DNA from: Verrucomicrobiales bacterium
GTDB taxonomy: Bacteria > Verrucomicrobiota > Verrucomicrobiia > Limisphaerales > UBA9464
Direction: 5' to 3'
Length of the DNA: 57,578 nt
NCBI GenBank assembly: GCA_005793375.1
Contig: SXSK01000045.1
Coordinates: forward strand, 1 to 57,578
In this document: positions 1-52,056 of the stretch, piece after piece
How the letters are laid out: each line of letters starts with the position of its first letter
Position numbering within the stretch: position 1 is the stretch's first letter
Position numbers and translations under genes: made by a program
Notes under the pieces: model-generated
Seen by the model: only the letters and a program-made list of their open reading frames with translations
What the model was told of the DNA's origin: nothing
Databases searched by the model: none

Positions 1-96
1 AGAAGCCATGCGCTTACTTTCAAGCGTGGCCATTGTGAAAAATCAGCCGAGTTCTCAATATCCCGCCTGCCTATTGTTCTTCCGCGGGTCCATCCT

Positions 97-213
97 TCAA
101 CCAATCCGGCCAAACCACTTTTCTTGAAACTGCCCTGCATTAGCGCAGACCAGACACTTAAAAGATTGACCAGCAATCTCCACGGTTTTCGGCTCCGTTT
201 TGAGAATGTTCAT
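97..213 (-). pseudogene. Possible truncated small zinc-ribbon protein (single CxxC)
   Basis: ATG at 213 gives MNILKTEPKTVEIAGQSFKCLVCANAGQFQEKW. This resembles the first half of small two-CxxC proteins but stops after one CxxC. Confidence 0.25.
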
Positions 214-467
214 CGTGTGTGTTGAAAGCGCCGGGGCTTCACGTGCATTAAAATGAGACGGACGTGTTTGTGGATCCGGCGAGTGTGATCCACTTAAGCA
301 AAGGCTTGTGCCGAAGGGAAGTCCGCTAATTGACTTGAATAAAAAAGTCTCACAGATCCCCACTTCAAGGGATCAATTTGAATAATTTACGTGTGTTTGG
401 TACTTTTCAGCCTGCCAATCCTAGGCTACGCATCACGGCCCCTTGCGAACCGGAGAAGACAAACCGT

Positions 468-495
468 TTGACCAAGTGGGTCCTGACCGTATGAT
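468..495 (+). promoter_or_regulatory. Sigma70-like promoter for the SPFH/P1B/ABC cluster
   Basis: TTGACC (468-473), 16-bp spacer, TATGAT (490-495), about 25 nt upstream of the first CDS. Confidence 0.5.
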
Positions 496-519
496 AACCG
501 CCACACAGTTACCCTTGTA

Positions 520-1482
520 TTGATGCGACAGTTCATCGCCATCGCGATTAACGCATTCATGGAATTGGTGCGGCAACCCGTTTACCTGTTGCTGTTGACC
601 GTTTCCTCAGCTTTTTCCGTTTTCCTGGCGGCAGTTCCTTATTTTGGGTTTGGCGATGACCCGAAACTGGTTAAAGACATGACCTTGGCGGTGATGTTGC
701 TGTCAGGCTTGCTCGGCGCCGTCTTGTGCGCCTCGGCGAGCGTTGCTCAGGAAATTCGCCAAGGCACGGCGCTGACTGTGTTGGCAAAGCCCGTCGGCCG
801 GGTTTCATTTCTACTGGCCAAATACGTCGGTTTGGCGGCGACCCTGGCGCTATTGACAATTTCCAATGCCATTGCCGCGCTATTGGCCAGTCGCATGGCT
901 TTTGACGCGTACGGTGAGGCAGACACAGTTTCCTTGGCGATTTACTTTGGTGCGGGACTTACGGCTTATGCGGGGGCTGGGTTTCTGAATTTCTTCCTCA
1001 ATCGGACCTTTGTTCCGAACGCCGTGTTTCTTTACGTGGTACTGACGTTTGTAGGTTTTCTGTATGTAGTCCTGTTTACCAAGTTGGACAAGGCATTCGG
1101 AGAAGCCGCAACGGTGGACTGGCGACTCATGCGTGCCGGCACGCTGATCTTATTTGCTTTGTGGGTCTTGGCTGCGCTGGCGCTGGCTTGCTCGACTCGG
1201 CTGGATGTCATACCGACCTTGGCTATTTGTTCGGTCTTTTTCCTGTTGGGATTGACGTCCGATCACTTTTTTGGGCGTCCCGCGAAGGAGGGAGTCTTGT
1301 GGGCGCAGTTGTGCTATACAGTGACACCGAATTGGCAGATTTTTTGGATGGCGGATGCTTTGGAAGGCAAGAAGAACATCCCCTGGGATTATGTAATTCG
1401 CGCCGCGGGATACCTTTTGGCGTATGTGAGCGCTTCGCTGTCCGTGGCGCTTTTGCTATTTGAAGACCGAGAACTGAGTTAA
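520..1482 (+). CDS. ABC-2-type transporter permease (PilI/XapB-like)
   Basis: 320 aa, multiple TM segments. Starts IAIAINAFMELVRQPVY and carries the EAA-like motif EIRQGTALTVLAKPVGRVSFLLAKYVG; ends FEDREL. ATG start possibly 523. Confidence 0.85.
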   Translation: MMRQFIAIAINAFMELVRQPVYLLLLTVSSAFSVFLAAVPYFGFGDDPKLVKDMTLAVMLLSGLLGAVLCASASVAQEIRQGTALTVLAKPVGRVSFLLAKYVGLAATLALLTISNAIAALLASRMAFDAYGEADTVSLAIYFGAGLTAYAGAGFLNFFLNRTFVPNAVFLYVVLTFVGFLYVVLFTKLDKAFGEAATVDWRLMRAGTLILFALWVLAALALACSTRLDVIPTLAICSVFFLLGLTSDHFFGRPAKEGVLWAQLCYTVTPNWQIFWMADALEGKKNIPWDYVIRAAGYLLAYVSASLSVALLLFEDRELS

Positions 1483-1525
1483 GGCCACGCTGGCCGCACT
1501 CTGGAAAAATCCGAGCTTTTACCCG

Positions 1526-3421
1526 ATGGAACGTAACGTCTCAAAAAATGGATTGTTGAACTGGATGGCACTCTTGGGCGCCGGAGCAGCAATTGCTGTC
1601 TTGGCCAAGTCCTCTGGTTCCGCTACGGGCGAAGTGGGGGTGATTTACTTCGCCATTGGCTTCATGGTCTCCCTGGTGAGTTGGTTCCAGATGCACTTGG
1701 AGTCGCGCGAAGAAACCGAGCGCCTGGAGATGGGGGAGTTGGCCAAGTCACGCACTGGAACTGCCCTTTTTGAGGGATCCTCCGACGATACGATGTTGGC
1801 CAAAAAGGCCCGTCAACAGTTCGAAAAGTGGGCTGTGCCAGCCTTTACCATTATCTTACTGATCATCCAAGTAATGGCAGTTTGGTGGTATTATGACCGC
1901 ATCACCAAGATGGAGCCACCCACGTCGAGCCAAAGTCTCTTTGCGCTCGCGATGTTTGCCGCCCTGGGATTAGTCCTGTTCCTACTCGGAACCTACTCCT
2001 CCAAGCTGGCCAGATATGAGGGGCATCGCCTCTTGCGGCCAGGTTCATCGGTCACACTGCTCGGCGCGATGATTTGTGCGGTGGGTGCGGTGGCGGAGGT
2101 TTTCGATTACCTGGGGTATCCCAAATACGACCGCTGGATTGCTTGGGTCCTGGTAGCCATTTTGGCCTTGGTGGCTTTTGAAACCCTTTTCGCGTTGGTA
2201 TTCGAGGTGTTCCGGCCCCGCGTCAAGGGCAAGGAAGTGCGCTTAGTTTATGAGAGCCGTCTGATTGGGTTGCTCGGGTCTCCTGGCGGTTTGTTTAGCA
2301 CAGCCGCCCAGGCCTTGGATTATCAATTTGGATTCAAAGTCTCGGATACTTGGTTTTTCCAATTTCTCCATGAACGCCTCGGTCGACTCCTTCTCTTCTG
2401 GGCAGGCCTGTTTTGGGCATCGACCTCCTTGGTATTCTTAGAACCGCCGGAACAAGGATTGCTCGAACGCTTTGGAAACCCGGTCGTGTCACGAGGGATT
2501 CTTGAACCTGGATGGCATTTGAAATTGCCTTGGCCCATGGATGCGGTTCATCGCTACCCGGTTCGGTCGCTCCAGTCCTTTAACATTGGATTCGAACCGG
2601 ATCCAACCAAGGAAAAGGAACGGACCCTCCTGTGGACCGTGCCTCACTATAAGACGGAAGTTCATATGTTGGTCGCGAGCCGCGAACAAACTCCAGTTAT
2701 CGAAGGCGGCACCCAACAGGCGGTTCCGGTCAACTTTCTCGCGGTCAGCATCCCGGTTCAGTTTACTATCAACGATGTCCGTGCCTGGGCTTACAACCAC
2801 TCCGGGCCTTCCGAGCTACTCGAGCGAATCGCAAACCGGGAAGTCGTCCGTTACCTGGTCAGTGTCGACATGCTCAAAATCATGGGGGAAGGACGGCTGC
2901 AAGCGGCCGAAGAAATGACCAAGCGTATCCAAAATGTCGCAGATCAACACAAATTGGGCGTATCGATTGCTTTCGTGGGCGTTCAGGATTTTCACCCACC
3001 TCCTGGAGATAAGGATCGTCCGGTCGCGGCAGCCTTTGAGAAGGAAGTTGGCGCTTTGGCCCAAAAGGAAGCGCTGATCTTGGAAGCAGAAGGGGATCTC
3101 GCCGAAGCCATACCTCGCGCGACGGCAGAGTCGTTGAAACGCGTCAACGATTCCAAAGCGGCCTCAGCGATTAAAGTCGAACTCGCCCTCGGTGAAGCCG
3201 ACCAATTCGAGGCTCAACGAAAAGCCAATGCAGCCGCTCCTACGATGTACCGAGCTCGGACTCAATTGGAAACATTATCACGAGCCATGGCCAAAGCTCG
3301 AAAGTACGTGATCGCTTCGACCAACGAACACCGCGTCATGCAGATTGATCTCCAAGAGAAAATCCGGGATGACCTTCTGGATGTGAAAATCGATTCCCCA
3401 GACAAACCCAGCGAGAAATGA
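1526..3421 (+). CDS. SPFH/Band-7 (HflK-like) protein with an N-terminal multi-pass membrane domain
   Basis: About 7 hydrophobic helices in the first ~300 aa. Then EQGLLERFG...LEPGWHLKLPWP (SPFH start), VGVQDFHPP...VAAAF and an Ala/Glu-rich coiled coil. Confidence 0.85.
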   Translation: MERNVSKNGLLNWMALLGAGAAIAVLAKSSGSATGEVGVIYFAIGFMVSLVSWFQMHLESREETERLEMGELAKSRTGTALFEGSSDDTMLAKKARQQFEKWAVPAFTIILLIIQVMAVWWYYDRITKMEPPTSSQSLFALAMFAALGLVLFLLGTYSSKLARYEGHRLLRPGSSVTLLGAMICAVGAVAEVFDYLGYPKYDRWIAWVLVAILALVAFETLFALVFEVFRPRVKGKEVRLVYESRLIGLLGSPGGLFSTAAQALDYQFGFKVSDTWFFQFLHERLGRLLLFWAGLFWASTSLVFLEPPEQGLLERFGNPVVSRGILEPGWHLKLPWPMDAVHRYPVRSLQSFNIGFEPDPTKEKERTLLWTVPHYKTEVHMLVASREQTPVIEGGTQQAVPVNFLAVSIPVQFTINDVRAWAYNHSGPSELLERIANREVVRYLVSVDMLKIMGEGRLQAAEEMTKRIQNVADQHKLGVSIAFVGVQDFHPPPGDKDRPVAAAFEKEVGALAQKEALILEAEGDLAEAIPRATAESLKRVNDSKAASAIKVELALGEADQFEAQRKANAAAPTMYRARTQLETLSRAMAKARKYVIASTNEHRVMQIDLQEKIRDDLLDVKIDSPDKPSEK

Positions 3422-3530
3422 TACGTGATTGGAAACCCATCATCCTATCGCCCATTGCCCCAGTGCTGATCAACAAGCCCAATTCCGTTCCAACAACGAG
3501 ACCCTCCGCGAGAGACCCTTTTAGATCGAT

Positions 3531-4445
3531 ATGAAGAAAAACAACGTCAGTATCGCCATCGGCGGCATCTTGATCGTGATGTTCGTCTGCCTGCTCTTCT
3601 TCTTCCAGGTACGCACCACCGAAGTGGCTGTCGTCACCCGGTTCGGGAAGATCTCCCGCCCAATCAAGGAAGCCGGAATGAAATGGCGCCTTCCATGGCC
3701 CATTGAAAACGTTTTTAAGTTTGAAAGCCGCCTCCAGAATTTCGAACGCAAGTTTGAAACCACACTGACCAGCGACGGTAAAATGGTCTTGGCGACCATC
3801 TTCGTCGCTTGGCGGATCTCCGAGCCCGAGCGTTTCCTGGAGAAGTTCGACGGCGATGTCGCGAAAGCGGAAAACGCCTTGGAGAATGTCGTGCGCAACG
3901 CCAAAAACGGCGTCATCGGCCGTCATGTGTTTAGCGATTTCATCTCGCCAGATCCCAACAAGGTAAAGTTTGAGGAGATGGAAAAAGAGATGCTCGCCGA
4001 GATCCAAAAAACCGCACTTTCCGTTTTTGGCATTGATGTTCAGTTGTGTGGGATCAAGCAGTTGGGGTTGCCAGAAAATGTGACTGCCGATGTGTTCAAG
4101 CGCATGAAGGCGGAACGCGAGCGTCTGGTGAAGAAGTATACGGCCGAGGGTGAATCACGCGCCTTGGAAATCCGCAGCGAAGCCAACCTCAAAAAGGAAG
4201 AGCTCCTCGCCAAGGCCAAAGGGCAGGCCGCTCGGATTGTGGGTCAGGCGGACGCGGTCGCTTCGGAGTCCTACCGCGTTTTTGAAAAGGAACCAGAACT
4301 GGCGAAATTTCAGTTCGAACTGCGAGCTCTGGAAAACTCGCTCAAGGAAAAATCCACGATTATCGCCGATCCCAATACGCCGCCCTTCAACCTGCTTCGG
4401 CCAGCCGGCAGTCATCGAAAAACCACAACCACTCCGGGTCGCTAA
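3531..4445 (+). CDS. hflC: HflC-like SPFH protein
   Basis: Single N-terminal TM; VVTRFGK, WRLPWPIE, LTSDGK and the HflC hallmark VFKRMKAERE...AEG...A.EIRSEA. May be a paralog rather than the FtsH modulator. Confidence 0.85.
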   Translation: MKKNNVSIAIGGILIVMFVCLLFFFQVRTTEVAVVTRFGKISRPIKEAGMKWRLPWPIENVFKFESRLQNFERKFETTLTSDGKMVLATIFVAWRISEPERFLEKFDGDVAKAENALENVVRNAKNGVIGRHVFSDFISPDPNKVKFEEMEKEMLAEIQKTALSVFGIDVQLCGIKQLGLPENVTADVFKRMKAERERLVKKYTAEGESRALEIRSEANLKKEELLAKAKGQAARIVGQADAVASESYRVFEKEPELAKFQFELRALENSLKEKSTIIADPNTPPFNLLRPAGSHRKTTTTPGR

Positions 4446-4473
4446 TGGTTGAGACCCTTATAGGATTACTGCC

Positions 4474-5571
4474 ATGAGTGACGGAAAGGAAAAATCCGGC
4501 AACCTGAAGGTGGCCCGCGGCGATACCGTGCCTACGGACGACGCGAGCAGTCAGGCGCTGAGCGAGGCATTGGGAAGTAGCGTGTGGCTGATGAAGGGCT
4601 TGGTCGCCCTCCTCACCGTTGCGTTTGTCGCTTCCTGCATTTTCACCGTAAAACCCAACGAAGTGGCGGTGGTGCTCCGCTTCGGACGTCCCCAGGGTGC
4701 CGGGGCGGAAATGGTGAAGAAGCAGGGACTCCATTTTGCCCTGCCGTTTCCCATCGACGAAATCGTCCGAATCAGAGTTGGTGAAGTTCAGACCGTGTAT
4801 ACCAAAACCCCTTGGGCATACATTGAACCCACGGAGGAAAGCGTTGGCAACGTCACGCCACCCAAAGATCGTGATCGGTTAAATCCCGCAGCCGATGGGC
4901 ATGTGCTAACCGCGGACGGTAATATTCTGCACGTTCGCGGTGCCGTGAAGTACCGAATCACGGATCCGGTATCGTACGCTTTTCGTTTTGGCAGTGTCTC
5001 CAACCTGTTGGCGAATGCACTGAACAACGCCATCTATCACGCGTCGTCGACCTTCCAGGCCGATGCCGCGCTCTACAAAGATCAGGCCGGATTCCGCGAA
5101 GCGGTGCGCCAGCGTTTAGAAAGCTGGATCCTTCGGTCACAGTTGGGGGTCACCATTGACCTGCTGGAAATTCAGACAGCCGCGCCGGGTTATGTCGCCG
5201 ATTTCTTCGATGCCGTGACGAGGGCCGAGCAAGCGCGCAGCACGCGCATTAGCGACGCTGAAGGTGAGGCCAACGCGATCGTTGGCAGGGCCAGCGGTGA
5301 AGCCCAGGCTATCCTGTCTGGCGGCATGGTCTCCAGCAATGCGCTGGTACAAGCCGTCTCGGCCGAAGCCGACGCCTTCTCCAGGCAGCTCGAATTCTAT
5401 AGGCGAGATGAGGATCTTTTCCGCAGCCGACTACTTGCCGATAGCCTGACGCGCGTCATGACTAATGCGAACCATGTCTTCTGGTTGGAATCCGATGAAC
5501 TTCGGTTGCTCTTGAACCGCGGGCCTCAAACGCCCGTCAAACCGCCGCAGGGCACTTCAGCCACTCCATAA
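4474..5571 (+). CDS. hflK: HflK-like SPFH protein
   Basis: One TM; EVAVVLRFG, GLHFALPFPIDE, LTADGNILHV...YRITDP, FDAVTRAEQ...AEGEA. May be a paralog of canonical HflK. Confidence 0.8.
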   Translation: MSDGKEKSGNLKVARGDTVPTDDASSQALSEALGSSVWLMKGLVALLTVAFVASCIFTVKPNEVAVVLRFGRPQGAGAEMVKKQGLHFALPFPIDEIVRIRVGEVQTVYTKTPWAYIEPTEESVGNVTPPKDRDRLNPAADGHVLTADGNILHVRGAVKYRITDPVSYAFRFGSVSNLLANALNNAIYHASSTFQADAALYKDQAGFREAVRQRLESWILRSQLGVTIDLLEIQTAAPGYVADFFDAVTRAEQARSTRISDAEGEANAIVGRASGEAQAILSGGMVSSNALVQAVSAEADAFSRQLEFYRRDEDLFRSRLLADSLTRVMTNANHVFWLESDELRLLLNRGPQTPVKPPQGTSATP

Positions 5572-5626
5572 TGTGCCAGACCGCCGTGCTCTTTAGTTCC
5601 TTTTTCACGCCTATCGATTTGTCGCC

Positions 5627-7630
5627 ATGCAAGTAACTTCACTCATCAGTCAGCAGGACGATTGTCAGGATTGCGGCCATGAACACTCCCACACGAATGT
5701 GCAGCTCTCCTACACCTTGGTGGGGTTGATCTTTGTTCTGAACTCGTTCCTGATCGACTGGACTTTTGCCAAGGGGACCATCGTTTCAGGGCTCAGTGCC
5801 TTGGTCGGCACATGCATCCTAGGGTTTCCTATCCTGAGAGTGGCATTTCTCGATCTATCGAAGGGCCGACTGACCATCAACGAACTCGTCGCCGTGGGTG
5901 TACTGGCCTGTGCGGTTTCGGGCAATTATGCCAGCCCGAATGAGGTAGCCGGAGGGTTTCAGACTGCCGGCATCGTGGCGTTCTTCATGCTGTTGGGTGA
6001 AATCATTGAGACTCGCACGGCCATCGGAGCCCGGGCATCGATCGAATCGCTCATTAAGCTCACGCCCACCCGGGCGCGACGCCTGGTAAACGGCAAGGAA
6101 GAGGAAGTAGCGGCCAAGGATTTGACCGTAGGCGATCTCATTCGCATTCGGCCCGGTGACAACGTTGCCGCCGATGGGTTGATTCAGGTAGGCCAGGGTT
6201 CCATCAACCAAGCCAACATTACAGGCGAATCACTTCCAGTCGATAAGGGTCCCGGCGATCAGGTTTTCGCAGGTACCATTAACCTGACTGGCGCCTTGGA
6301 AGTGAAGGTCACCAAGGCTGGTCAGGATACAACCATCGGAAAAGTTCGTGAGTTGATTCTCGCTGCTGAAAAGACTCGGCTGCCATTCATGCGCATCGTC
6401 GACCAGAACATGCGTTATTATACGCCATTCGTCCTGGTAGTAGCCGCACTGGTCTGGGCGTTTACTCGAGATCTGAACCGAGTGATTACAGTCCTCATCG
6501 TGGCCTGCCCGTGCGCCTTCATTCTGGCGACGCCCAGCGCCATGGTCGCCGCCATCGCCGCCGCCGCACGACTCGGTGTCCTCGTCAAAAATGTGGGAGA
6601 TCTCGAGTTGGCTGCACGCATCAGCGCGTTCGTATTCGATAAGACTGGAACACTGACCACCGGCAAGCTGGTGGTGAGCCGTTTGAACCCATTGGGCGAG
6701 ACCACCGCAGCAGAGTTGCTTCGCATCGCCGCTAGCGCCGAGAAATTGTCCAACCACCCCACGGCTAAGGCCTTGGTCCAGTTGGCTGATGAAGCCGGAG
6801 TGCCACTAGCCGATGCCACCGACTTTAAAGAATCTGCCGGCCGAGGCATCAGCACCCTGGTGGAAGGAGCTCGCGTCGTCATCGGTCGTTCTGCGTGGCT
6901 CAAGGACAATGGTGTCAGTGGTGACTTTCTGAAATCGGTGGACCTCAACGAAACCGAAGGCTTCAGCCTTTTGTTTGTGGCGCGTGACGGCCAGTTCGTT
7001 GGCTGGGTGGGACTTCAGGACCAAACCCGGGCCGAAGCCAGCGAGGCGCTCGAGGGACTCCGAGAAACCGGCGTCCGGCGGATTGCCATGGTCAGCGGCG
7101 ATCGCCAACCGGTGGCCGCGCGAGTGGCGAAAGAGATCGGTATCGAGGAAGTCGTCGCCGAATGTCTCCCTCAGAACAAGGTTGAATACGTCAAGCAGAT
7201 GAAGGCGAAGGGGTATCGCGTCGCCGTCGTCGGGGATGGAGTGAACGATGCGCCGGCGCTGGCGGCTGGTGACATTAGCATCGCCATGGGAGCTGCCGGC
7301 AGCGAGGTGGCCATCCATAGTGCGACGATCGCTTTGATGAGCAATGACCTCCGTCGATTGGCCTTCTTGGTCCGGCTTTCACGCATGACCCGGAGCGTGA
7401 TCAATCAAAACTTCATGTTCGGAGTAGTGTTCATCATCGGTGGCATTTCGTTGTCCGCTATGGGGTACCTGAATCCCATTATCGCGGCCATGATGCACAA
7501 TGCCGGATCACTTTTTGTCGTCTTCAATAGCGCTCGACTCGTCCGTCAAGGCGAGGAACTCGAGCCGCATCTGGTAGCAGAATCCGTGGCGAACCTCCCG
7601 ACGCCACCTTCGGTCAAGTTCGCCACTTAA
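5627..7630 (+). CDS. Heavy-metal-translocating P1B-type ATPase
   Basis: TGES, ACPCAFILATP, FDKTGTLT, SNHP, GDGVNDAPALA; N-terminal CQDCGHEHSH; last TM contains MHNAGS. Confidence 0.95.
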   Translation: MQVTSLISQQDDCQDCGHEHSHTNVQLSYTLVGLIFVLNSFLIDWTFAKGTIVSGLSALVGTCILGFPILRVAFLDLSKGRLTINELVAVGVLACAVSGNYASPNEVAGGFQTAGIVAFFMLLGEIIETRTAIGARASIESLIKLTPTRARRLVNGKEEEVAAKDLTVGDLIRIRPGDNVAADGLIQVGQGSINQANITGESLPVDKGPGDQVFAGTINLTGALEVKVTKAGQDTTIGKVRELILAAEKTRLPFMRIVDQNMRYYTPFVLVVAALVWAFTRDLNRVITVLIVACPCAFILATPSAMVAAIAAAARLGVLVKNVGDLELAARISAFVFDKTGTLTTGKLVVSRLNPLGETTAAELLRIAASAEKLSNHPTAKALVQLADEAGVPLADATDFKESAGRGISTLVEGARVVIGRSAWLKDNGVSGDFLKSVDLNETEGFSLLFVARDGQFVGWVGLQDQTRAEASEALEGLRETGVRRIAMVSGDRQPVAARVAKEIGIEEVVAECLPQNKVEYVKQMKAKGYRVAVVGDGVNDAPALAAGDISIAMGAAGSEVAIHSATIALMSNDLRRLAFLVRLSRMTRSVINQNFMFGVVFIIGGISLSAMGYLNPIIAAMMHNAGSLFVVFNSARLVRQGEELEPHLVAESVANLPTPPSVKFAT

Positions 7631-7665
7631 GCTCCTGTTCCTTCGAAGACCGACTCCTTACGCTT

Positions 7666-8883
7666 ATGGCCGCGCTGCCCAAATCCACGAAACCACCCGA
7701 AACGGAGGCCGTTATCCGTGTCACGGGATTATCCAAGACGTTTAAGGACTTCTGGGGTCGCCCTAAAGCGCGCGCCGTGGACAATGTCGACTTCGAGGTC
7801 CGCCGCGGGGAAGTGTTCGGATTGCTCGGGCCTAACGGCTCTGGCAAGTCGACCACAGTCAAGATGTTGCTCGGGTTATTGTACCCAACGAAGGGCCACA
7901 TCGAAGTGTTCGGCAAGTCACCTCGTGATGTGGCCACCAAATCCCGTATTGGATATCTGCCGGAGGAGAGTTATCTCTATCGTTATCTCAATCCAGGCGA
8001 GACCCTCGATTTCTTCGGAAATCTTTTTCAACTGAATTCCGTCGAGAGGCGCCAACGCACGGAGCAATTGATTGAAATGGTAGGACTCAATCAAGCGCGC
8101 ACACGCACTGTTGGCGAGTTTTCCAAAGGCATGCAGCGCCGTATCGGTATCGCGCAGGCTCTTATCAACGATCCCGATCTGGTGATCCTCGATGAGCCAA
8201 CTGCCGGCCTCGACCCACTTGGGTGCCGCGAAGTGAAGGATCTCATCCTGGCACTCGCCGCGCGCGGCAAGACTGTTATCCTGAGCAGCCACTTGTTGGC
8301 CGACGTGGAAGATGTGTGTGATCGAGTGGTAATCTATTACGGAGGACGCATCCAGGCCATGGGTTCTTTGAGTGAACTGCTTGCGGAACCGGACTCGGTG
8401 CAGATCACGACACCGGTTTTGTCCCGTGAAACCACAGAGAAGGTGCTTGGCATTCTTCGAGCTGAGGCTGGCGATCGAGTAAGACTGGGTTCGCCAACCC
8501 AGAATCTGGAGAGCTACTTCCTGGGAGTGGTGGAACGGGCACGCCAAAAGGCCGGAGCTGGAGTAGGCACGAGCGGGGCCACCAGCGGCAATCAGGTCGC
8601 CGACTTCATCCGTGCCGGAGCCTCTGCCATAGGAGATCCGGGACAATCTCAACGGGTTCTGGAACGACTCACTCGTTCAACGGCATCCTCCATTGAACCC
8701 ACTGTGGTCCCAACTCAAAACAGCGCTCAGGCTGTCGATGCTGCGAAACTCGAGGCGCTAACCAAGGCCGAAATCTCGCCCACCACCGCCGAGCCATCAC
8801 CACCGCCCACTACCTCAGAGGCCCAGGCTGCAGAACTCGCGAAAGCCAACGACAAATTGACGGGCCTGCTGGGAAAGAAGTGA
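7666..8883 (+). CDS. ABC transporter ATP-binding protein (PilH/XapD-like) with a long C-terminal tail
   Basis: Walker A GPNGSGKST, signature FSKGMQRR, Walker B VILDEPT, H-loop LSSHLL; about 110-aa Ala/Ser/Pro-rich tail. Confidence 0.95.
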   Translation: MAALPKSTKPPETEAVIRVTGLSKTFKDFWGRPKARAVDNVDFEVRRGEVFGLLGPNGSGKSTTVKMLLGLLYPTKGHIEVFGKSPRDVATKSRIGYLPEESYLYRYLNPGETLDFFGNLFQLNSVERRQRTEQLIEMVGLNQARTRTVGEFSKGMQRRIGIAQALINDPDLVILDEPTAGLDPLGCREVKDLILALAARGKTVILSSHLLADVEDVCDRVVIYYGGRIQAMGSLSELLAEPDSVQITTPVLSRETTEKVLGILRAEAGDRVRLGSPTQNLESYFLGVVERARQKAGAGVGTSGATSGNQVADFIRAGASAIGDPGQSQRVLERLTRSTASSIEPTVVPTQNSAQAVDAAKLEALTKAEISPTTAEPSPPPTTSEAQAAELAKANDKLTGLLGKK

Positions 8884-8889
8884 GGTGCC

Positions 8890-10683
8890 ATGAATCGTCG
8901 CTTTGAGATCTATCAGAATGACGCCGGGGAGCGGCGGGCGGTCCCTTGCGGATTCTCAGTAACTGCGGCGTTGTTGGACTGGATCTGGGCGCTCTTTCTG
9001 AACCTCTGGCTCGAGGCCGCTGCTTTGTTCGTTCTGAATGCGGTTCTGGTCGCGACACTCTATGCGGCAGATTCAAGTGCCATGGGCTACGTCGTGGCCC
9101 AGGTCCTGCAAGGAATCTTGATAGGGACCCAGGCCCGGCGTTTACGCGCGCTGTCGGCGGAGCGCCATGGCTACGCGTTTGTTTGCACAGTGCCGGGACG
9201 TAGTGGCGCTAACGCCATCGCCAAATTAGTCCAGGTCGGCGGAGAGCCCTTACCGGAATGGCGCGGGCGCCATTTCTTCACCCTGCCAGATTTCATCCCG
9301 GTAAGCTTGCGGCGCATCGGTGCCATGGCGTCACTCACCATCAAGGCAGCCTTTCGACTTCGTCTGGTCTTGGTATTGTTGGGGCTCCTGACGGTTGCGG
9401 TTTTTGTTTTGCCCTCGATCATTATTCACGATGGCAGCGCCCGCGGGTTCACGCAGATTGTACTGACATATAGTCTGGCGGCGATTACTGGAATTCTCGG
9501 TTTTACAACGCTTTGGCTGGCGTGTGGCACCTTGGCGAGCGATATCGAAGACTGTCAGATCCACGTGGTGATGAGCAAACCGATCCCGCGTTGGGAAATC
9601 TGGATTGGAAAATGGGTGGGGATTCTCCTGCTCAACGCAGCGCTGCTGACTTTCTCTGGATTCGTTGTTTTTTGTCTTCTTCTGGGTCGCTCCAGCCAGT
9701 TGCCGAAAGATCAGCAGGAGATACTTCGGAAAGAAGTATTGGTAGCACGCGCAGGAGCACGTGAAACGGTGCCGGATCTGAGGCCAGCGATTGAAGAACT
9801 CGTCGCGGAGCGTCTCAAGAAGGGTGACCTGACACCTGTGGATCGTCAGTTGGTCCGGAAGCAGATCACCGAACAGGTCAAAGCCCAAGCTCAAGTGGTT
9901 CCTTCGGGACAAATCCGGCGCTGGGTGATTGATCTGGGAGCGGGGGCGGTGGATCGATTACGAGACGAACCGCTGTTTCTGCGCGTGAAATTCTTCAGTT
10001 CTGAATATGCCAGTGATGGAGCGACATTTGCTTTCCGCTGGTTGATTGGTCCTCCGGAAAGCAGCACGCGATTCCCCATCGAAAACAGTTTGGGCGCTGA
10101 GTCGTTTGTTGAATTTCCCATTGCTCCAAACCTCTTGGACAAAGACGGCAAATTGGTGATCGATCTTCAGAACTGGAACAATTTGGCGATCCTCTTCCCG
10201 CTGGAGGATTCCATGGAGGTGCTCTATCGAGAAGGTGGGTTCGCTCTGAATTTCGCCCGAGGCCTCGGTATCATCCTTTGTTGGCTCGCGTTGCTCGGCT
10301 CCATCGGCCTGGCCTGTTCGAGCCGGATGTCCTTTCAGGTCTCCTCGTTCGTCTGCCTCGCCATTCTCCTGGTGGCGTTTTCCGGTGGCACGATCAGCTC
10401 CGTCATCGAACAGGGGGGTATCATGGGTGTGGACCACGACACCGGCATGGTCGAAAAGAGCAACAGTATCAATCGCGCTTCCGTGGTGGTCTTCAGCGCT
10501 GCCAAACGGATCATCGGTGTCGCCCAGGATTTTTCACCGGTTGAATCGTTGAGCACCGGACGAAGCATCACCTGGGGCTTGCTTGCCCAGGCCTTCCTTC
10601 AAATCGTCCTATTCCTTGGCGGCAGCTTTGCCCTCGTTGGCATCGTGGTTCTTACTCGCCGCGAAATCGCCTTGCCCACCTGA
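8890..10683 (+). CDS. ABC-2-type permease with a large extracytoplasmic domain and an N-terminal DUF2628-like module
   Basis: DIEDCQIHVVMSKPIPRWEIWIGKWVG EAA-like motif; TM blocks flank a ~190-aa soluble domain; ends TRREIA. N-terminus GFSVTAALLDWIWALFLNLW resembles DUF2628. Confidence 0.8.
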   Translation: MNRRFEIYQNDAGERRAVPCGFSVTAALLDWIWALFLNLWLEAAALFVLNAVLVATLYAADSSAMGYVVAQVLQGILIGTQARRLRALSAERHGYAFVCTVPGRSGANAIAKLVQVGGEPLPEWRGRHFFTLPDFIPVSLRRIGAMASLTIKAAFRLRLVLVLLGLLTVAVFVLPSIIIHDGSARGFTQIVLTYSLAAITGILGFTTLWLACGTLASDIEDCQIHVVMSKPIPRWEIWIGKWVGILLLNAALLTFSGFVVFCLLLGRSSQLPKDQQEILRKEVLVARAGARETVPDLRPAIEELVAERLKKGDLTPVDRQLVRKQITEQVKAQAQVVPSGQIRRWVIDLGAGAVDRLRDEPLFLRVKFFSSEYASDGATFAFRWLIGPPESSTRFPIENSLGAESFVEFPIAPNLLDKDGKLVIDLQNWNNLAILFPLEDSMEVLYREGGFALNFARGLGIILCWLALLGSIGLACSSRMSFQVSSFVCLAILLVAFSGGTISSVIEQGGIMGVDHDTGMVEKSNSINRASVVVFSAAKRIIGVAQDFSPVESLSTGRSITWGLLAQAFLQIVLFLGGSFALVGIVVLTRREIALPT

Positions 10684-10700
10684 CGAATCGAGCCAACACC

Positions 10701-12197
10701 ATGCGTCCGCTTAAACCCATCTTGGTGCTCGTATTGGCGATATCTCTCGTCGGTGTGTTCTTCTTCCAACGTGTCCTAAATCAACAGCGCGAGTCCGCCG
10801 GCCTGACCCGCACCGCCGTAATTAGCAACGCGCCTCCAGTGCTCGCCTTCACCACGGTCGCGCTCGGCGGATTTCGGGGGATCATCGCCAACATTCTCTG
10901 GGTTCGGGCGGCCGAACTTCAGGAGAACGGCAAGTATTTCGAGATGGTTCAACTCGCGGATTGGATCACGAAGTTGCAGCCACACTTTTCGCAGGTCTGG
11001 GTGAACCAAGCCTGGAACATGGCCTATAACATTTCCGTTAAATTCCCCAACCCCGACGATCGCTGGCATTGGGTGCTGCGCGGCATCGAACTGTTGCGCG
11101 ATCAAGGCATGATGTACAACCCCCACGAAATTCTGATGTACCGGGAATTGGGTTGGTTGTTTCAACACAAAATGGGGGCGTACCTCGACGACGCTCACAT
11201 GACTTACAAGCGGGAGTGGGCCACTTCCATGGAAGCCTTGTTGGGCCCGGGGCGGCCGGATTTTGAAACCTTGATCAACCCGGTGACCTCGGGACAAAAA
11301 ACCTCGTCTGAGTTGCTGCGCGCAAAATACAAGATGGATCCTGTGTTGATGAAGGAAGTGGACGACACCTATGGGCCGCTCGAGTGGCGGTTGCCCGAAT
11401 CGCATGCGATGTACTGGGCGAGTGCCGGACTCAAATTCGCCAAATGGAATGGCAAACCCGAAGAGCAGTTTGTCATGCTTTGGCGCGAGATCTATCAGCC
11501 AATGCTGGTAGCGTTTCAACGCGGCCGTTTCATCACAAACAAGGCCGACAAAACCATTCAACTCGGACCAAATCTTGCGATGGTTCCGAATGTATCGCGC
11601 GCCTATGAACGGGCCATGACCAATACGCCCGACATGCGCGAACACATCGGAAATGCGCACAAGAATTTCCTTCGGGATGCGAGCTATTTCCTTTTCGCCA
11701 ACAACCGTGAAAAAGAGGCTGAGAAATGGTTCAACCTGGGTTCCAGGTTGTACGGCACGAATTTCGCCGGCGGGTTGGATTTGGTATCCTATTCAATGGC
11801 CCAGATCACCGAGAACATCAATGAGACGTCCCCCGACAAGATCAAGGCATTGCTGGAGGGATTGATCATGCAGTGGGCATACAATCTCGCTATTGATGAA
11901 GAGGATCGGGCGGTCTCGTTGGAGCGAATGGCGACGTTGGTTCGCAACAATTACATGCAACGCATCGGCTCGAACAAGAGTTCCAAAGAACGACTGCCGA
12001 TGCCTCCGATCCCAGAAATCAAACAGCAGGTGCTGTCCCGTGTGTTTCAAGCCGAAGACGGACTCCACCCAGAGCTGCAAAACGTCTTACGTTCCAAACT
12101 CGGTATTACGAGCACTCCAGTACCACTTGCCAAACCGGAACCTGCGGCCAAACCTGCTCCACCCTCTGGGACGCGACCCGCGTCCAAGTCCAATTAA
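10701..12197 (+). CDS. Membrane-anchored helical (TPR-like) protein, PilG/XapA-like
   Basis: N-terminal TM; LGGFRGIIANILWVRA...ITKLQPHFSQVWVNQAWNMAYNISV...RWHWVLRGIELLR...YRELGWLF. Last gene of the cluster, with an 18-nt offset from the preceding stop. Confidence 0.6.
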   Translation: MRPLKPILVLVLAISLVGVFFFQRVLNQQRESAGLTRTAVISNAPPVLAFTTVALGGFRGIIANILWVRAAELQENGKYFEMVQLADWITKLQPHFSQVWVNQAWNMAYNISVKFPNPDDRWHWVLRGIELLRDQGMMYNPHEILMYRELGWLFQHKMGAYLDDAHMTYKREWATSMEALLGPGRPDFETLINPVTSGQKTSSELLRAKYKMDPVLMKEVDDTYGPLEWRLPESHAMYWASAGLKFAKWNGKPEEQFVMLWREIYQPMLVAFQRGRFITNKADKTIQLGPNLAMVPNVSRAYERAMTNTPDMREHIGNAHKNFLRDASYFLFANNREKEAEKWFNLGSRLYGTNFAGGLDLVSYSMAQITENINETSPDKIKALLEGLIMQWAYNLAIDEEDRAVSLERMATLVRNNYMQRIGSNKSSKERLPMPPIPEIKQQVLSRVFQAEDGLHPELQNVLRSKLGITSTPVPLAKPEPAAKPAPPSGTRPASKSN

Positions 12198-13435
12198 AGG
12201 TTTTTTGGCCGACGCGAGGGCGGATGGCGGAGCAGCGTCGCGATCGCCACCAAGAGTGCTGCGAGGATGAGCAATGCCCCCATGAAGAAGGGTGCTCCTG
12301 GAAGAAGAATTGGCGCCCGATCACTGATGAAATAGCCAAACAGGGATGTGGATAGCAACGGTGCAATGAACCCTGCGACGCTCCCCAAACTGGCCAGCGC
12401 TCCCTGGACCGCACCCTGCTCGTTGGCTTCAGCGCCACCCGTAATCAACGCCTGGGTTGCGGGGGCACCAATGGCTCCCAACGAAGCCAAGGCCACGATC
12501 GAGTAGAGCATCCAACCCTGCGTTACCGCACCATACCCGATCAAAGCCAAAAAGTTGATGCAAAGGCCGACAATCAGTGCCTTCGGTTCTCCCATTGCCG
12601 GAACCAACCATCGCGCTAATCCGCCCTGTACAATCGCTACGGTCAAACCGACGATGGCCAGAGAAATTCCCACTTGGCCCGCAGTCCATCCATACCGGTA
12701 ACCCGTATACAATACCCAGATGCTATGCGTGGAATATTGTCCGACGCTCAAGAGGAAGAAACTCACTGCCAAACCCAGGACCAATGGGTGACGCCTCAAT
12801 GAGGTGAATGATCCCACCGGATTCGCCCGGCCCCACGAAAAGGCCCGCCGATTTTCGGGCGCCAGGGATTCCGGAAGAACCAATAGTCCATAAAGCCAGT
12901 TGATGAGTGTCATGGCCGCTGCCACTAAAAAAGGAAGGCGAAGATCCCGGCCACCCAGCAATCCTCCCAGTGCCGGACCTGCAATGAAACCAAGACCAAA
13001 GGCAGCGCCGATCATTCCAAAATTGGCCGCTCGCTTTTCAGGGGGACTGACATCCGCGATATAGGCGGATGCCGCTGAGATATTCGCCCCGGTGATTCCG
13101 GCGACGACGCGCCCGACATAAAACCAACTCAGTGTGGGTGCAAACGCGAGGAGCAGGTAGTCCAGCCCGGAACCGAATAGCGATCCCAAGATCACCGGCC
13201 GGCGACCGAATCGATCGGAGAGACTTCCGAGGATCGGAGAAAAGAGGAACTGCATCAGGGCGTACAGTGCTCCAAGCCATCCGAAAGTATGCGAGGCGGC
13301 TGAAACGTCGCCACCCTCCAGCTGCTCGATTAATTTCGGCAGGATCGGAATGATGAGGCCAATGCCGAAGATATCGAGGAACAAGGTGACCAGAATGAAT
13401 CCCAGTGCGGGTTTGTATGTGGTCATTGTGGCCAT
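12194..13435 (-). CDS. MFS efflux transporter, TetA/DHA1 family
   Basis: 12-TM pattern, motif [23 protein letters not shown] and motif [13 protein letters not shown]. Start chosen at ATG 13435 (alternative 13426), just after the upstream stop. Confidence 0.9.
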
Positions 13436-23846: not shown

Positions 23847-26800
23847 ATGAACAGCACTCATGTGTATCTGCTGCGACGACTCTGCGTTTTCGTCGTTGCC
23901 GTTGCGGCTATGGTCCTTTCTTTTGGGAAGGCCTTCGCCCAATTCACACTGACGCAAACCGTCCCGATCACGATTAACGACAACTCCACGGCATCCCCGT
24001 ATCCATCCGCAATCGTGTCGTCGAATCTCTTAGGCATAATCACGAAGGTGACGGTGACGCTGACTGGGATGAACCACGGCTATCCAGACGACGTGGATGT
24101 GCTGCTGGTGGGGCCCAATGGCAAAAAAGTGATGCTAATGAGTGATACCGGTGGCGGTGTGGATTTGCGCGGAACGGACATCACCTTTGATGCCACCGCG
24201 ACTCCAAGCCTCTCCGACGAAGGCGCCATTGTCACAGGTACCTACAAACCTACGGACATCAATGAGGCACAAGAAATCTTCTCCACAGTGACGGCGCCCT
24301 ACGAAAATTCACTGGCTGATTTCGTCGGCGAGAATCCGAACAACACGTGGCAGCTGTACGTGAAGGATGATTCCTTCAGCGACGCCGGATTCATTACCTC
24401 ATGGAGCCTGAACCTCTTTACCACGCCACTCATTGGTTTGGTCACCAACATAGTTAGAACCGTTGAAGATGTGCCAGGGACACTGACACTCACCTTACAG
24501 GACAGTAGCACAGCTGCCGCCGTTCTGACAGTGACTGGAACCTCACCGAATCTGAGTTTTGTCAACACCAACGGGTTTAGCTCCACGGGAACTGGTTTGG
24601 AAAGGACGTTGACCATTACGCCGGTTGCCAATGCGTTCGGCACCAACACGCTCACAGTGACCGTGAGCGATGGGCTCGGAACCGCTAGCACGAACTTCAC
24701 GTTCATTGTGACGCCGGTTAACGATGGCCCTTCCATCTCGTTGAGCACGAATCGTGTCTTCACCACGGCGGGTAACGTCACAACCACGTCCAACATTGTT
24801 ACGGCAGTGATCAGCGACATCGACACCGATATCTCCGCCTTGGTGCTCTCTTCGGTGTCTGCCAATCCAAGCGTGGTCGCCGACGGTGCGGCAGTCTTCA
24901 CCGCCGGAACGGGCGGCACCAATACAGTAGTCATCGCACCAAACGCAGGCGCGACCGGTGCGGCCATCGTCTCATTACGCGTCTCTGACGGTGCCATCAC
25001 CAACTCAGCCGATGTCGAAGTCGTCGTTAACCCGGTCACTTATGCCGTTTTCGGTAATGGGGCTCCGATTCGCATCAATGATGCAACCAACGCCACTCCA
25101 TACCCGTCGATCTTCAGCGTTGCCAACATCCCGGGGAACATCGCCCGATTGTCCGTTGTTCTGGCCGATGTCAATCACTCGAACCCTGCAGATCTCAAGG
25201 CCCTGTTAGTCTCCCCCTCAGGCCGGTCTGTGGTGCTGATGGGTGGCGCCGGTGGGGCAAATGCACTCAGCCGCACACGCATCACTTTTGATGAGAATGC
25301 CGCAGCCACAATTCCAAACGGAGCTGCCATTACCACGGGTGCATATAAAACCGCCGACTACATCCCAGGCACGACACTCCCAGCTCCAGCGCCCTCCACA
25401 AACATTTCAACCACCGGACTAAGTGGTCTGAATGGTTCTGATCCCAATGGCACTTGGTCACTCTACGTGATCGACACAGCGAACGGAAGCACGGGAGCCA
25501 TCACTGGCGGTTTCCTTGTCAACATCTTCCCAGCGCCAACGATTAACGGCATAGAAACAAAATATTTCACCGATGAAGATACCGCGTTCACGGTAAATTT
25601 CACGGTGGCGGATTTCGATGGAACCGTTACGAACGTTACGGTGAGCTCTGGTGACGCCAGCCTGTTCACAGGGGTCGTGACACGAACTGGGAACAACGTC
25701 GCATTAGTTGTGACACCTGGTTCCAATCGCTTTGGCACCAACACACTGTCGGTCGTCGCGACGGACAACAACGGTTTCATTGAAACTAAGACCTTCACCG
25801 TTGGAGTCAGACCGGTAAACGACACACCCACGCTTTCCAACATCAGCAAACAAACGACTCGAGCTGGTATACCGCTCGGACCGATTGGGTTTACCGTCGG
25901 CGATGTTGAAAGCGACCCGGGAACACTTGTAGTGACATTCGGTTCTAGCAATCAGAAGCTGATACCTACCAGTAACATTGTATTAACGGGAGCTGGAGCC
26001 AACCGAAGCATGACGATCTACCCAGCTGGCGTACTTGCCGGTAATGCGGAGCTGACAGTATTCGTCTCAGACGGATCAGCTTCCAGCAGCAAAACCTTGG
26101 AAATCGCGGTGACCGATGCGCCAAATCCGCTGTTCGAAAATCCGGGCCTAATTACGTTCAATGAAAACACAACTGCCTCGCCATATCCAGCCAGCATCAA
26201 TGTGAGCGGGCTACTCGGATCTGTAGCGAGCATCAAAGTGACACTTATCGGGTTCAATCACACAGGGCCTGATGACGCAGACATCCTCCTCCAGGGACCA
26301 ACTGGTAAAAAAGTCAGTCTGATGAGCGATGCCGGTGGAGTTAATGGGGTAGTAAACGCTCAAATTGTCTTCGATGGTGCCTCGGGCAATCTCTTGCCGG
26401 ATGAAGCGCAAATCGTGTCTGGAACTTTCGCTCCTAGCAACTACGGAGGCGCTGAAGTGTTCCCGCAGACGACTACCAATGTCGTGGATTCGAGCCTCAC
26501 TACATTCGTCGGAACCAACCCAAATGGTGTATGGTCACTCTTTGTTCTAGACGACGAAACTGGTAACCGCGGTGCGCAAATCAGTGGTGGATGGCATCTG
26601 AGCATCCAAACACAGCCTGTGCTGTCCTCCATCCCGACACAGACGACTACTGAAGATACAGCATTGCGAGTCGGACTGCTGATTGGTGATTCTCAACCTG
26701 GCGTAAATTACACGATCACACCAACAGCTGGAACTCCGGCAACATTGGTTAAAGAATTCAGGCTTGAAGGAACTGGCGCCAGCAGAAGCTTGACGATTGT

Positions 26801-52018: not shown

Positions 52019-52056
52019 GACAAAAATCAATGCTCGCTTCAGACTCGCGCGTAGCA

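Follow-up and report, generated by a model that had tools for sequence, protein, structure and literature searches.

Three SPFH genes at the core of an eight-gene unit

We analysed a stretch of 57,578 nucleotides from the genome of a Verrucomicrobiales bacterium (GenBank assembly GCA_005793375.1, contig SXSK01000045.1, positions 1 to 57,578 of the forward strand), hereafter the window, by which we mean the whole stretch. Near its start, three genes for SPFH proteins lie in tandem on the plus strand. SPFH proteins are found in all domains of life. We refer to the three genes and their products as the trio, and describe here their phylogenetic position, the predicted membrane domain of the largest product and the transporter genes with which the trio is inherited, foremost that of a P1B-type ATPase. 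The genome is 5.77 Mb in size, assembled into 426 contigs and 94% complete.

The trio is the core of a unit of eight plus-strand open reading frames (ORFs) at 520-12197, in which the other genes flank it. The first trio gene (1526-3421) encodes the large SPFH subunit of 631 amino acids (aa), hereafter TM-SPFH. From the N-terminus it comprises a domain with the predicted fold of cation diffusion facilitators (CDFs), a conserved loop, a seventh transmembrane (TM) helix, an HflK-type SPFH domain and a coiled coil. The second gene (3531-4445) encodes an HflC-type subunit of 304 aa with one TM helix (Pfam Band_7, E 3.6e-28; NCBIfam TIGR01932), and the third (4474-5571) a second HflK-type subunit of 365 aa, likewise with one TM helix (Band_7, E 2.5e-21; TIGR01933).

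The downstream neighbour of the trio (5627-7630) is itself a gene for a P1B-type ATPase of 667 aa, with a CPC motif in TM4 and without an HMA domain (TIGR01525). It is followed by genes for an ATP-binding cassette (ABC) transporter ATPase of 405 aa (7666-8883; Pfam ABC_tran, E 5.7e-33), an ABC-2 permease of 597 aa with an N-terminal DUF2628 (8890-10683; DUF2628 at 8.8e-08 and ABC2_membrane_2 at 7.8e-07), which we call ABC2b, and a family-less protein of 498 aa (10701-12197) that is modelled by AlphaFold2 as a membrane-anchored all-alpha solenoid. Upstream of the trio, the first gene of the unit (520-1482) encodes an ABC-2-like permease of 320 aa, ABC2a, with about seven hydrophobic segments by hydropathy and a Pfam ABC2_membrane_4 match that is below the cut-off (E 0.0023).

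The eight genes are separated by gaps of 43, 109, 28, 55, 35, 6 and 17 bases, in this order. The sequence-only reading from which this analysis started stated neither that the neighbour of the trio is a P1B-type ATPase nor that the trio is embedded in an ABC-2 transporter operon.

The trio proteins form three ortholog groups outside canonical HflK and HflC

All three proteins match Pfam Band_7 (PF01145) above its gathering cut-off of 23.6 bits, with 53.2, 99.2 and 77.0 bits for the 631-, 304- and 365-aa proteins, respectively. In TM-SPFH the match (E 5e-14) covers residues 306-524, which places the Band_7/SPFH domain at 2441-3097 on the plus strand. On the NCBIfam hflK model (TIGR01933), TM-SPFH and the 365-aa protein reach 109.4 and 130.6 bits, both below the cut-off of 159.4. 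On the hflC model (TIGR01932), the 304-aa protein is barely above the cut-off (137.0 against 134.4 bits).

A hydropathy scan found seven hydrophobic segments at residues 9-306 of TM-SPFH and one segment in each of the other two proteins. Canonical HflK and HflC have a single N-terminal TM helix, and this trait is found in the 304- and 365-aa proteins and is absent from the large subunit. The sequence-only reading had noted three SPFH genes in tandem, the first with a multi-pass N-terminus of about seven TM helices. The ORFs and Band_7 matches confirm the former, and the hydropathy scan, together with seven long helices in an AlphaFold2 model (see below), agrees with the latter.

We then placed the proteins in a tree of 57 SPFH sequences. 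It contains the trios of the window, of a second contig of the same genome (C173, see below), of five Verrucomicrobiota loci and of ten metagenome loci, with canonical HflK and HflC from the window genome and from E. coli K-12 and two other SPFH proteins of the genome as references. The trio sequences fall into three clean groups with support of 99 (TM-SPFH), 94 (HflC-like) and 99 (HflK-like). The HflC-like group joins canonical HflC as its sister (support 99 for the two together), and TM-SPFH, HflK-like and canonical HflK sequences make up one larger group (support 90).

Based on this grouping, the trio consists of one HflC-type and two HflK-type proteins outside the canonical groups. Relative to the two canonical pairs sampled, the trio clades stand beside the canonical rows and never inside them. 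The three SPFH proteins are therefore distinct paralogues that belong to three separate ortholog groups outside canonical HflK/HflC. The sequence-only reading had already called them distinct paralogues, and the NCBIfam scores are in line with the tree. The phylogeny had been suggested there as a check, and it puts the trio outside the canonical, FtsH-linked clades.

Among solved structures, the nearest chain is E. coli HflK (7vhp_E) for TM-SPFH (residues 398-608) and for the 365-aa protein (residues 138-336), and HflC (7vhp_G) for the HflC-type protein. The alignments to the E. coli cage (7vhp and related entries) extend over the C-terminal half of the SPFH domain and the coiled coils. The trio thus keeps the ring-forming parts: its nearest solved chains are HflK and HflC, and it aligns with them via SPFH domains and coiled coils.

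Neither ftsH nor hflX is present in the window, as had been noted, and both are found on other contigs of the genome: the FtsH matches are split across the ends of contigs C229 and C340, and hflX is on contig C15. A separate hflKC locus, for which the earlier reading had suggested looking, also exists. This canonical hflK/hflC pair is on contig C165 and scores 288.9 bits (hflK) and 236.1 bits (hflC). The genome has ten Band_7 matches. The window and C173 account for three each, C165 and C28 for two each.

The N-terminal domain of the large subunit is predicted to have a CDF fold

We modelled residues 1-310 of the large subunit with AlphaFold2 from a 64-row alignment (pLDDT 81.9, pTM 0.76). In the model, six long helices span residues 5-229, a pair of short ones lies at 245-268, and the seventh long helix occupies 276-299. 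We divide this region, which is encoded on the plus strand, into three features. The first is a six-helix membrane domain (residues 1-230; 1526-2215) to which structure searches with the model assign a CDF fold. The second is a conserved loop, predicted to be cytoplasmic (residues 230-275; 2213-2350), in which an alignment of 104 members displays the motifs RPR, SR and DYQFGFKVS; the short helices of the loop are modelled with pLDDT 57-74. The third is the seventh TM helix (residues 276-299; 2351-2422), which leads into the SPFH domain and is seen both as a helix of the model and as a hydrophobic segment at 288-306.

A structure search on about the first 300 residues had been suggested by the sequence-only reading, and for the multi-TM part it returned the fold of CDF transporters. 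Foldseek run on the PDB placed CDF transporters (YiiP, ZnT1, SLC30A10, ZnT3 and ZnT8) at ranks 1-5 and in most of its rows. The best E value is 0.026, none reaches 1e-3, and TM-scores are 0.5-0.57, with ExbB/TolQ chains and designed helical bundles interspersed from rank 6.

In an all-against-all structure search of 48,161 chains, ZnT3 is first (Z 15.2, 199 residues, 4.4 Å) and SLC30A10 second (Z 15.1, 176 residues, 3.1 Å), followed by generic four-helix bundles with Z of at most 9.7. Re-alignment of Foldseek's best 1000 chains brings YiiP 8f6h_B to Z 19.6 at an rmsd of 2.3 Å over 187 residues, aligning model residues 4-230 with chain residues 11-209, which is the entire YiiP membrane domain. 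Rows 1-26 of this re-alignment are all CDFs and the first unrelated fold has Z 7.7. CDFs that are inward-facing by title (rows 6, 10 and 12) score Z 15.1-15.9, and those titled outward-facing (rows 16-17) about 9.5. The chance level for helical bundles in such searches is about 13, and the top CDF values are above it.

At the level of sequence profiles, hhalign of the domain alignment against 18 CDFs from relatives of the genome gave a probability of 66% (P 5.5e-5) over 211 collinear columns (query 3-241, template 8-224), compared to 0.35% for an ABC-2 permease control. A CDF hidden Markov model (HMM) run against single sequences (297 proteins) gave nothing convincing (best E 0.0012), and Pfam Cation_efflux (PF01545) had no match in the large subunit at E ≤0.01. 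Among structural neighbours in the ESM Atlas, a Pseudomonadota cluster of 603-aa 'HflK family' proteins carries Band_7 and Cation_efflux in 100% of its members. Literature on cation diffusion facilitators together with SPFH comprised only transporter censuses, as judged by title.

The transport site of CDFs consists of acidic and histidine residues in TM2 and TM5. In the hhalign alignment, the residues of the large subunit opposite these CDF motifs are G, V, I, S or T, and among the 104 diverse family members no TM2 or TM5 column has D, E, H or C in at least half of the sequences. The cytoplasmic C-terminal domain of CDFs is absent too, and TM6 is followed by a loop of 45 residues, the seventh helix and the SPFH domain. 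Among acidic positions, E219 in TM6 is conserved in 98% of the members, and D202 and E227 are mostly acidic.

Apart from E219, conservation in TM-SPFH is concentrated in the loop after TM6 and not in the helices. The loop is the most conserved stretch of the family: P231, Q267 and G269 are invariant in the 104 members, R230, S244, R245, Y266, F268 and S273 are conserved in at least 96%, and R232 and F270 are also among the conserved positions. Since there are seven helices and the N-terminus is placed inside, the loop would be cytoplasmic and the SPFH domain periplasmic, as in HflK and HflC. This topology is deduced from the helix count and from positive charges. Taken together, the modelled N-terminal domain appears to be a CDF membrane-domain fold that lacks the residues of the CDF metal site.

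The trio is inherited with a P1B-type ATPase and ABC-2 genes

The fused form of the large subunit is widespread. A word-indexed search with the full protein found 2576 proteins at E ≤1e-3 among 8000 scored, the best 120 of which match over nearly the full length with 48-79% identity. With residues 1-300 as query, 1.84 billion cluster representatives yielded 898 proteins at E ≤1e-3, 722 of them at ≤1e-10. Because 103 of the best 150 of these matches are 590-800 aa long, with the match at or near the N-terminus in the rows listed, fusion of the membrane domain to an SPFH protein is the rule, and the shorter matches are probably fragments.

By source name, members belong to Limisphaerales and other Verrucomicrobiota, to Brocadiia, Phycisphaerae and other Planctomycetota, to Lentisphaeria and to Omnitrophota. 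Of 401 genomes sampled from the phylum, 184 have a match to the large subunit at E ≤1e-30, and in 145 of these 184 the match is at E <1e-100 (counted by hand), that is, over the full length. Many full-length matches in this table of genomes are listed with one stop 'inside', yet the open frame of each has the full length of the match; the stop is probably the gene's own, at the end of the alignment.

We next counted the genes around the trio, in each case at loci with enough DNA on the relevant side. A scan of species genomes with the most conserved motif of the family gave at least 599 confirmed places, and the counts are from the best 80 loci, all labelled Verrucomicrobia or evident mislabels. 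ABC2a is found before the trio at 73 of 73 Verrucomicrobiota loci. The HflC-like gene follows the large subunit at 74/74 and the HflK-like gene is present at 71/71, and a P1B-type ATPase comes after the trio in all 67 cases. For the ABC ATPase and ABC2b the counts are 52/60 and 48/55, respectively.

To reach more distant loci, we scanned metagenomes with a Planctomycetota protein as first sequence and obtained 80 loci that are 24-45% identical to the query. The HflC-like gene (59/59) and the HflK-like gene (56/56) are again always present, and ABC2a is upstream at all 62 loci, in divergent orientation in 58. The fourth gene is a P1B-type ATPase in 37 of 46. The loci without an ATPase at this place (L131, L132, L134-L137, L185, L188 and L202) keep the trio and the ABC-2 set together.

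The order of the three SPFH genes recurs in all examined loci with room and is not due to chance. The recurrent link between an SPFH trio and a P1B-type ATPase, which the sequence-only reading had suggested counting, is thus real in Verrucomicrobiota and in most of the distant loci, and it crosses phyla. In bacteria of the PVC group (Planctomycetes, Verrucomicrobia, Chlamydiae), the core of four genes, trio and ATPase, is nested inside an ABC-2 transporter operon. Based on these counts, the PVC trio is tied to the ABC-2 set as tightly as to the pump.

The ATPases of the module belong to one clade

The ATPase of the window scores 537.9 bits on TIGR01525 (cut-off 346.25). Its N-terminus is rich in Cys and His, and no HMA family is found in the protein by Pfam at E ≤0.01. 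The TM6 motif of the window protein reads AA..HN.GS. Across 43 PVC orthologues, C294-P295-C296, N595 and H624 are invariant, and so is DKTGT.

In a tree of P1B-type ATPases, the proteins of the PVC module and of proteobacterial cassettes (see below) form one clade with support of 99, apart from E. coli CopA, ZntA and the three other P1B pumps of the genome. Members of the clade share the CPC in TM4 and AA.LHN.[GS]T in the last helix. Accordingly, the constant partner of the trio across phyla is a distinct clade of HMA-less CPC P1B-type ATPases, which by gene order is of the hmtA-locus type described below.

The genome encodes a second copy of the unit

All eight genes of the unit are present a second time in the genome, on contig C173 (locus L011, 278-11327, minus strand), in the same order as in the window. 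The large SPFH proteins of the two copies are 40% identical and the ATPases 64%.

The large SPFH gene on C173 has one in-frame TAG at codon 119 (L011 9994-9996). In contigs of three sequencing runs, two of which are possibly from the source samples of the genome, this codon is TAT (Tyr), at depths of 9.6, 9.8 and 5.2. Because all three read TAT, the TAG is more likely an assembly flaw than the sign of a dead gene, and we rejected the idea of C173 as a broken second copy.

Recent duplication was likewise rejected, since the C173 copy never pairs with the window copy in the SPFH or ATPase trees. In both SPFH trees, the three window genes each form a pair with the corresponding gene of locus L018. 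C173 has its large subunit in a clade with L070 and L204, joined in the first tree by L078, and its HflC-like and HflK-like genes do not resolve to the same partners. Among the ATPases, that of the window again pairs with L018, and that of C173 with L078. The two copies are old paralogues, or one of them was acquired.

A search of the window genome, complete to 94%, for Cation_efflux (PF01545) at E ≤1e-20 gave no match, and 17 of 20 relatives have one. This genome with two copies of the module may do without a classical CDF, or its CDF gene may be missing from the assembly.

A four-gene core on proteobacterial plasmids

We searched plasmid proteins with the large subunit and obtained 50 records, two of which were opened. 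The same search with the ATPase was uninformative, with at least 5000 generic P1B matches, all below 60% identity and at 34-38% among the matches listed.

On the Burkholderia ubonensis plasmid pMSMB2035 (NZ_CP013415.1), four genes encode an HflK of 631 aa, an HflC of 345 aa, an SPFH-domain protein of 347 aa and a cation-translocating P-type ATPase of 649 aa, with the last three genes overlapping. A Rhizobium tumorigenes plasmid (NZ_CP117260.1) has a four-gene cassette with products of 672, 339, 346 and 651 aa. Gene order and sizes match the trio-ATPase core of the window. The cassettes differ from it in that they have no ABC-2 genes and no solenoid protein, in the overlap of their genes and in the conserved loop motif, which reads differently from that of the PVC family.

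In both plasmids, the protein of gene 1 has six hydrophobic segments before the SPFH part and matches the HMM of the N-terminal domain (E 1e-13 and 2e-12), a score to which the seventh helix and the first part of the SPFH domain contribute. A second SPFH tree groups gene 1 with TM-SPFH (support 97) and gene 3 with the HflK-like proteins (support 95). By tree, genes 1 and 3 and the ATPase are orthologous to those of the PVC module. The cross-phylum module that the sequence-only reading could only conjecture is therefore found in the form of this four-gene core.

In the Burkholderia cassette (L229 743-15065), IS5, IS110 and IS66 transposase genes bracket the four genes on a conjugative plasmid. 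Such a setting fits horizontal spread.

Gene order at the Pseudomonas hmtA locus

The sequence-only reading pointed to a similar trio beside the P1B-type ATPase HmtA (PA2435) of Pseudomonas aeruginosa. This arrangement is in print as a gene order (PMC4542158 and PMC11761036). Pederick et al. list PA2434, PA2435 (HmtA), PA2437 (HflC family), PA2438 (HflC) and PA2439 (HflK family) together (PMC4542158, Table 2), and they report 5.6- to 14.4-fold induction of the cluster in a znuA mutant and a weak Zur site. In a proteomics preprint, PA2435 and PA2437-PA2439 are raised under zinc depletion (PMC11761036). In a 2026 paper, the trio is named PaFlo5-7 and taken to be a single operon, whose patchy occurrence would point to horizontal transfer (PMC13086221).

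The hmtA locus therefore resembles the module, as far as these sources go, in having three SPFH genes (HflK family, HflC and HflC family) beside a P1B-type ATPase, with co-induction by zinc depletion. It differs in that no ABC-2 genes are reported for the Pseudomonas cluster in the same passages.

The two fields have remained apart in the texts we searched. The main text of the Pseudomonas SPFH paper has 0 occurrences of hmtA or 'ATPase' (PMC13086221), and SPFH genes have 0 occurrences in the searched portions of reviews on HmtA and zinc uptake (PMC10393844, PMC8456098). 'ATPase' likewise has 0 occurrences in a 2009 survey of SPFH evolution (PMC2636767). Our literature searches found no paper joining P1B-type ATPases with SPFH, stomatin, HflK or band 7 proteins, and no mechanistic study of an SPFH trio beside a P1B pump.

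In sum, an SPFH trio beside a P1B pump has already been published for P. aeruginosa, as an entry of a table and in the description of an operon. New here are the assignment of the CDF fold with loss of the metal site, and the position-by-position orthology to the plasmid cassettes. The second copy of the unit in the genome is also new, as is the finding that the stop codon on C173 is unsupported by the contigs of the sequencing runs.

Further features of the locus and the window

The AlphaFold2 model of the 498-aa protein at the end of the unit (pLDDT 86.0) has one N-terminal TM helix followed by an all-helical solenoid. The protein has no Pfam or NCBIfam match. Foldseek gave weak rows resembling tetratricopeptide repeats (best E 2.8e-3, TM-scores below 0.3), and because these are weak we assign no family. 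In the Atlas, its neighbours come from Verrucomicrobiota, Planctomycetota and Lentisphaerota and likewise belong to no family. We read the protein, from its model, as a putative membrane-anchored repeat scaffold. PVC bacteria keep it together with the unit, and in metagenome loci it is sometimes longer (585-680 aa).

A sigma-70-like promoter match, by consensus only, is located upstream of the first gene of the unit (468-495, plus strand). It is the only promoter-like match in 1-12600, compared to a mean of 5.6 in shuffled sequence. A search for operator-like palindromes upstream of the unit (300-560) gave one weak 13-nt palindrome only, and no regulator gene adjoining the eight genes was found. 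A search for RNA sequencing runs that contain 450-10400 gave none.

The remaining genes of the window are unrelated and include those for a major facilitator superfamily (MFS) transporter, glycosyltransferases, a CotH protein and Mla proteins, among others. The ORF at 23847-33284 encodes a giant surface-type protein of 3146 aa with a proprotein-convertase P-domain, bacterial Ig (Big_9) and cadherin-like domains. On the minus strand, a 621-aa ORF (50195-52057) has GreA/GreB domains in its last 160 residues, preceded by an N-terminal part of about 460 residues without a family match. The start codon of this ORF may have been called too early.

Discussion

The gene content of the locus, the co-inheritance of its genes, the orthology groups and, from a structure model, the fold of the N-terminal domain are the basis on which the trio can be interpreted. 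We infer from it the formation of a ring, the topology, the contact with the pump and the metal that is handled. We favour, with about as much confidence as doubt, the reading that the trio is a dedicated SPFH cage around metal transporters, distinct from the FtsH modulator encoded elsewhere in the genome.

As a mechanism, the three proteins would assemble into a heteromeric dome on the periplasmic face, similar to that of HflK/C. The dome would cover a patch of membrane holding the pump and, in PVC bacteria, the ABC-2 transporter as well. The seventh TM helix and the conserved cytoplasmic loop would join the periplasmic SPFH and coiled-coil part to the CDF-fold domain, and the CDF-fold domains would serve as docking or partition elements within the membrane. 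Such a cage could govern whether the transporters assemble, how stable they are or how active they are, or could confine a periplasmic space for the hand-over of metal. The earlier proposal that the multi-TM subunit acts as an adaptor is compatible with a dedicated cage.

Comparison with known systems helps to define what is particular to the trio. The E. coli HflK/HflC cage around FtsH (7vhp, 7wi3 and 9cz2) provides the nearest solved chains for all three proteins, and by helix count the SPFH part of the trio would face the periplasm as it does in that cage. The cage has two types of subunit whereas the trio has three, in separate clades, one of them with seven TM helices and a CDF-fold domain. 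The trio genes are linked to P1B-type ATPase and ABC-2 genes and not to hflX or ftsH.

With CDFs (YiiP/FieF and ZnT/SLC30), the large subunit has in common, by its model, the six-helix membrane domain with both ends cytoplasmic. Unlike CDFs, it has no Pfam Cation_efflux match, no conserved site residues in TM2 and TM5 and no cytoplasmic C-terminal domain. The stomatin cages of red cells, as described in PMC12407830, are SPFH cages with transporters, aquaporin-1 and urea transporter-B, as clients. They are eukaryotic, homo-oligomeric, monotopic and without gene linkage.

A number of observations weigh against a dedicated cage around the metal pump. The CDF likeness comes from a predicted model and its sequence support is modest (66% by hhalign, a best HMM E value of 0.0012 and no Pfam match). 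The trees sampled canonical HflK and HflC as two pairs only, and in the second tree gene 2 of the plasmid cassettes is in the HflC supergroup without separating from canonical HflC. Nine of the 46 distant loci have no ATPase at the usual place and carry the ABC ATPase directly after the trio, and two further, related loci (L141 and L172) have the P1B gene upstream of ABC2a. The equivalence with the hmtA locus is one of published gene order. Finally, the triple deletion of PaFlo5-7 had subtle phenotypes only, metal limitation not being among the conditions in the passages available (PMC13086221).

Of the alternatives, the most probable is that the trio is a specialised HflK/HflC cage still acting via FtsH, one that would present the pump and the ABC-2 proteins to this protease for regulated turnover or quality control. 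In its favour, the solved structures nearest to all three proteins are HflK or HflC, the score of the HflC-type member lies just above the hflC cut-off, the genome encodes FtsH, and HflK/C with FtsH is, to our knowledge, the only bacterial SPFH cage with a known and solved client. Nevertheless, the genome retains a canonical hflKC pair, and the trio groups separately from the canonical proteins in both SPFH trees. The eight families looked for around the trio at 160 loci did not include ftsH, FtsH itself not having been searched for there. We consider action via FtsH unlikely.

A more elaborate form of the dedicated cage is conceivable, in which a dome with a ring of CDF-fold pseudo-transporter domains in its wall or floor encloses the HmtA-type pump, and in PVC bacteria the ABC-2 transporter, in a closed metal-handling chamber. 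This is speculative and we regard it as doubtful. If it were true, the chamber would determine in which direction, or with which partner, metal is transferred, and this could explain why a P1B pump has been reported as an importer.

It is improbable, in our view, that the genes merely share an operon and its regulation without a specific complex, the trio being a general microdomain scaffold that is expressed along with transporters under envelope or metal stress. A role as general organisers of microdomains is often ascribed to SPFH proteins, and the mild phenotypes of the Pseudomonas triple deletion (PMC13086221) would fit. A general scaffold does not account for a gene order that is fixed across at least four phyla and plasmids, for the fusion of one scaffold subunit to a transporter-fold domain, or for congruent SPFH and ATPase trees (the window pairs with L018 throughout, and the partners of C173 are only partly consistent).

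Least probable of all is that the CDF-fold domain is an active transporter with an unusual site and the ATPase a second, separate transporter of the same regulon: the match to the entire six-helix CDF membrane domain, best in inward-facing states, the CDF-HflK fusions of the Atlas cluster with Cation_efflux in every member, and the acidic E219, D202 and E227 would suit it, but TM2 and TM5 have no D/E/H/C column in half of the 104 members, the cytoplasmic CDF domain is absent, and conservation is concentrated in the loop after TM6 rather than in the helices.

Returning to the trio as a dedicated cage, the locus offers SPFH cages a candidate for a second kind of client that is genetically defined: a clade of heavy-metal pumps co-inherited with three SPFH paralogues. 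This co-inheritance spans PVC bacteria to proteobacterial plasmids, with one scaffold subunit built, according to its model, on the fold of zinc transporters. The finding joins the SPFH and zinc literatures, between which there is no cross-citation in the portions of the texts searched (PMC13086221, PMC10393844 and PMC8456098). With its small set of genes, the locus makes two questions testable, namely the roles of bacterial SPFH cages beyond FtsH and the unusual behaviour of HmtA-type P1B pumps.

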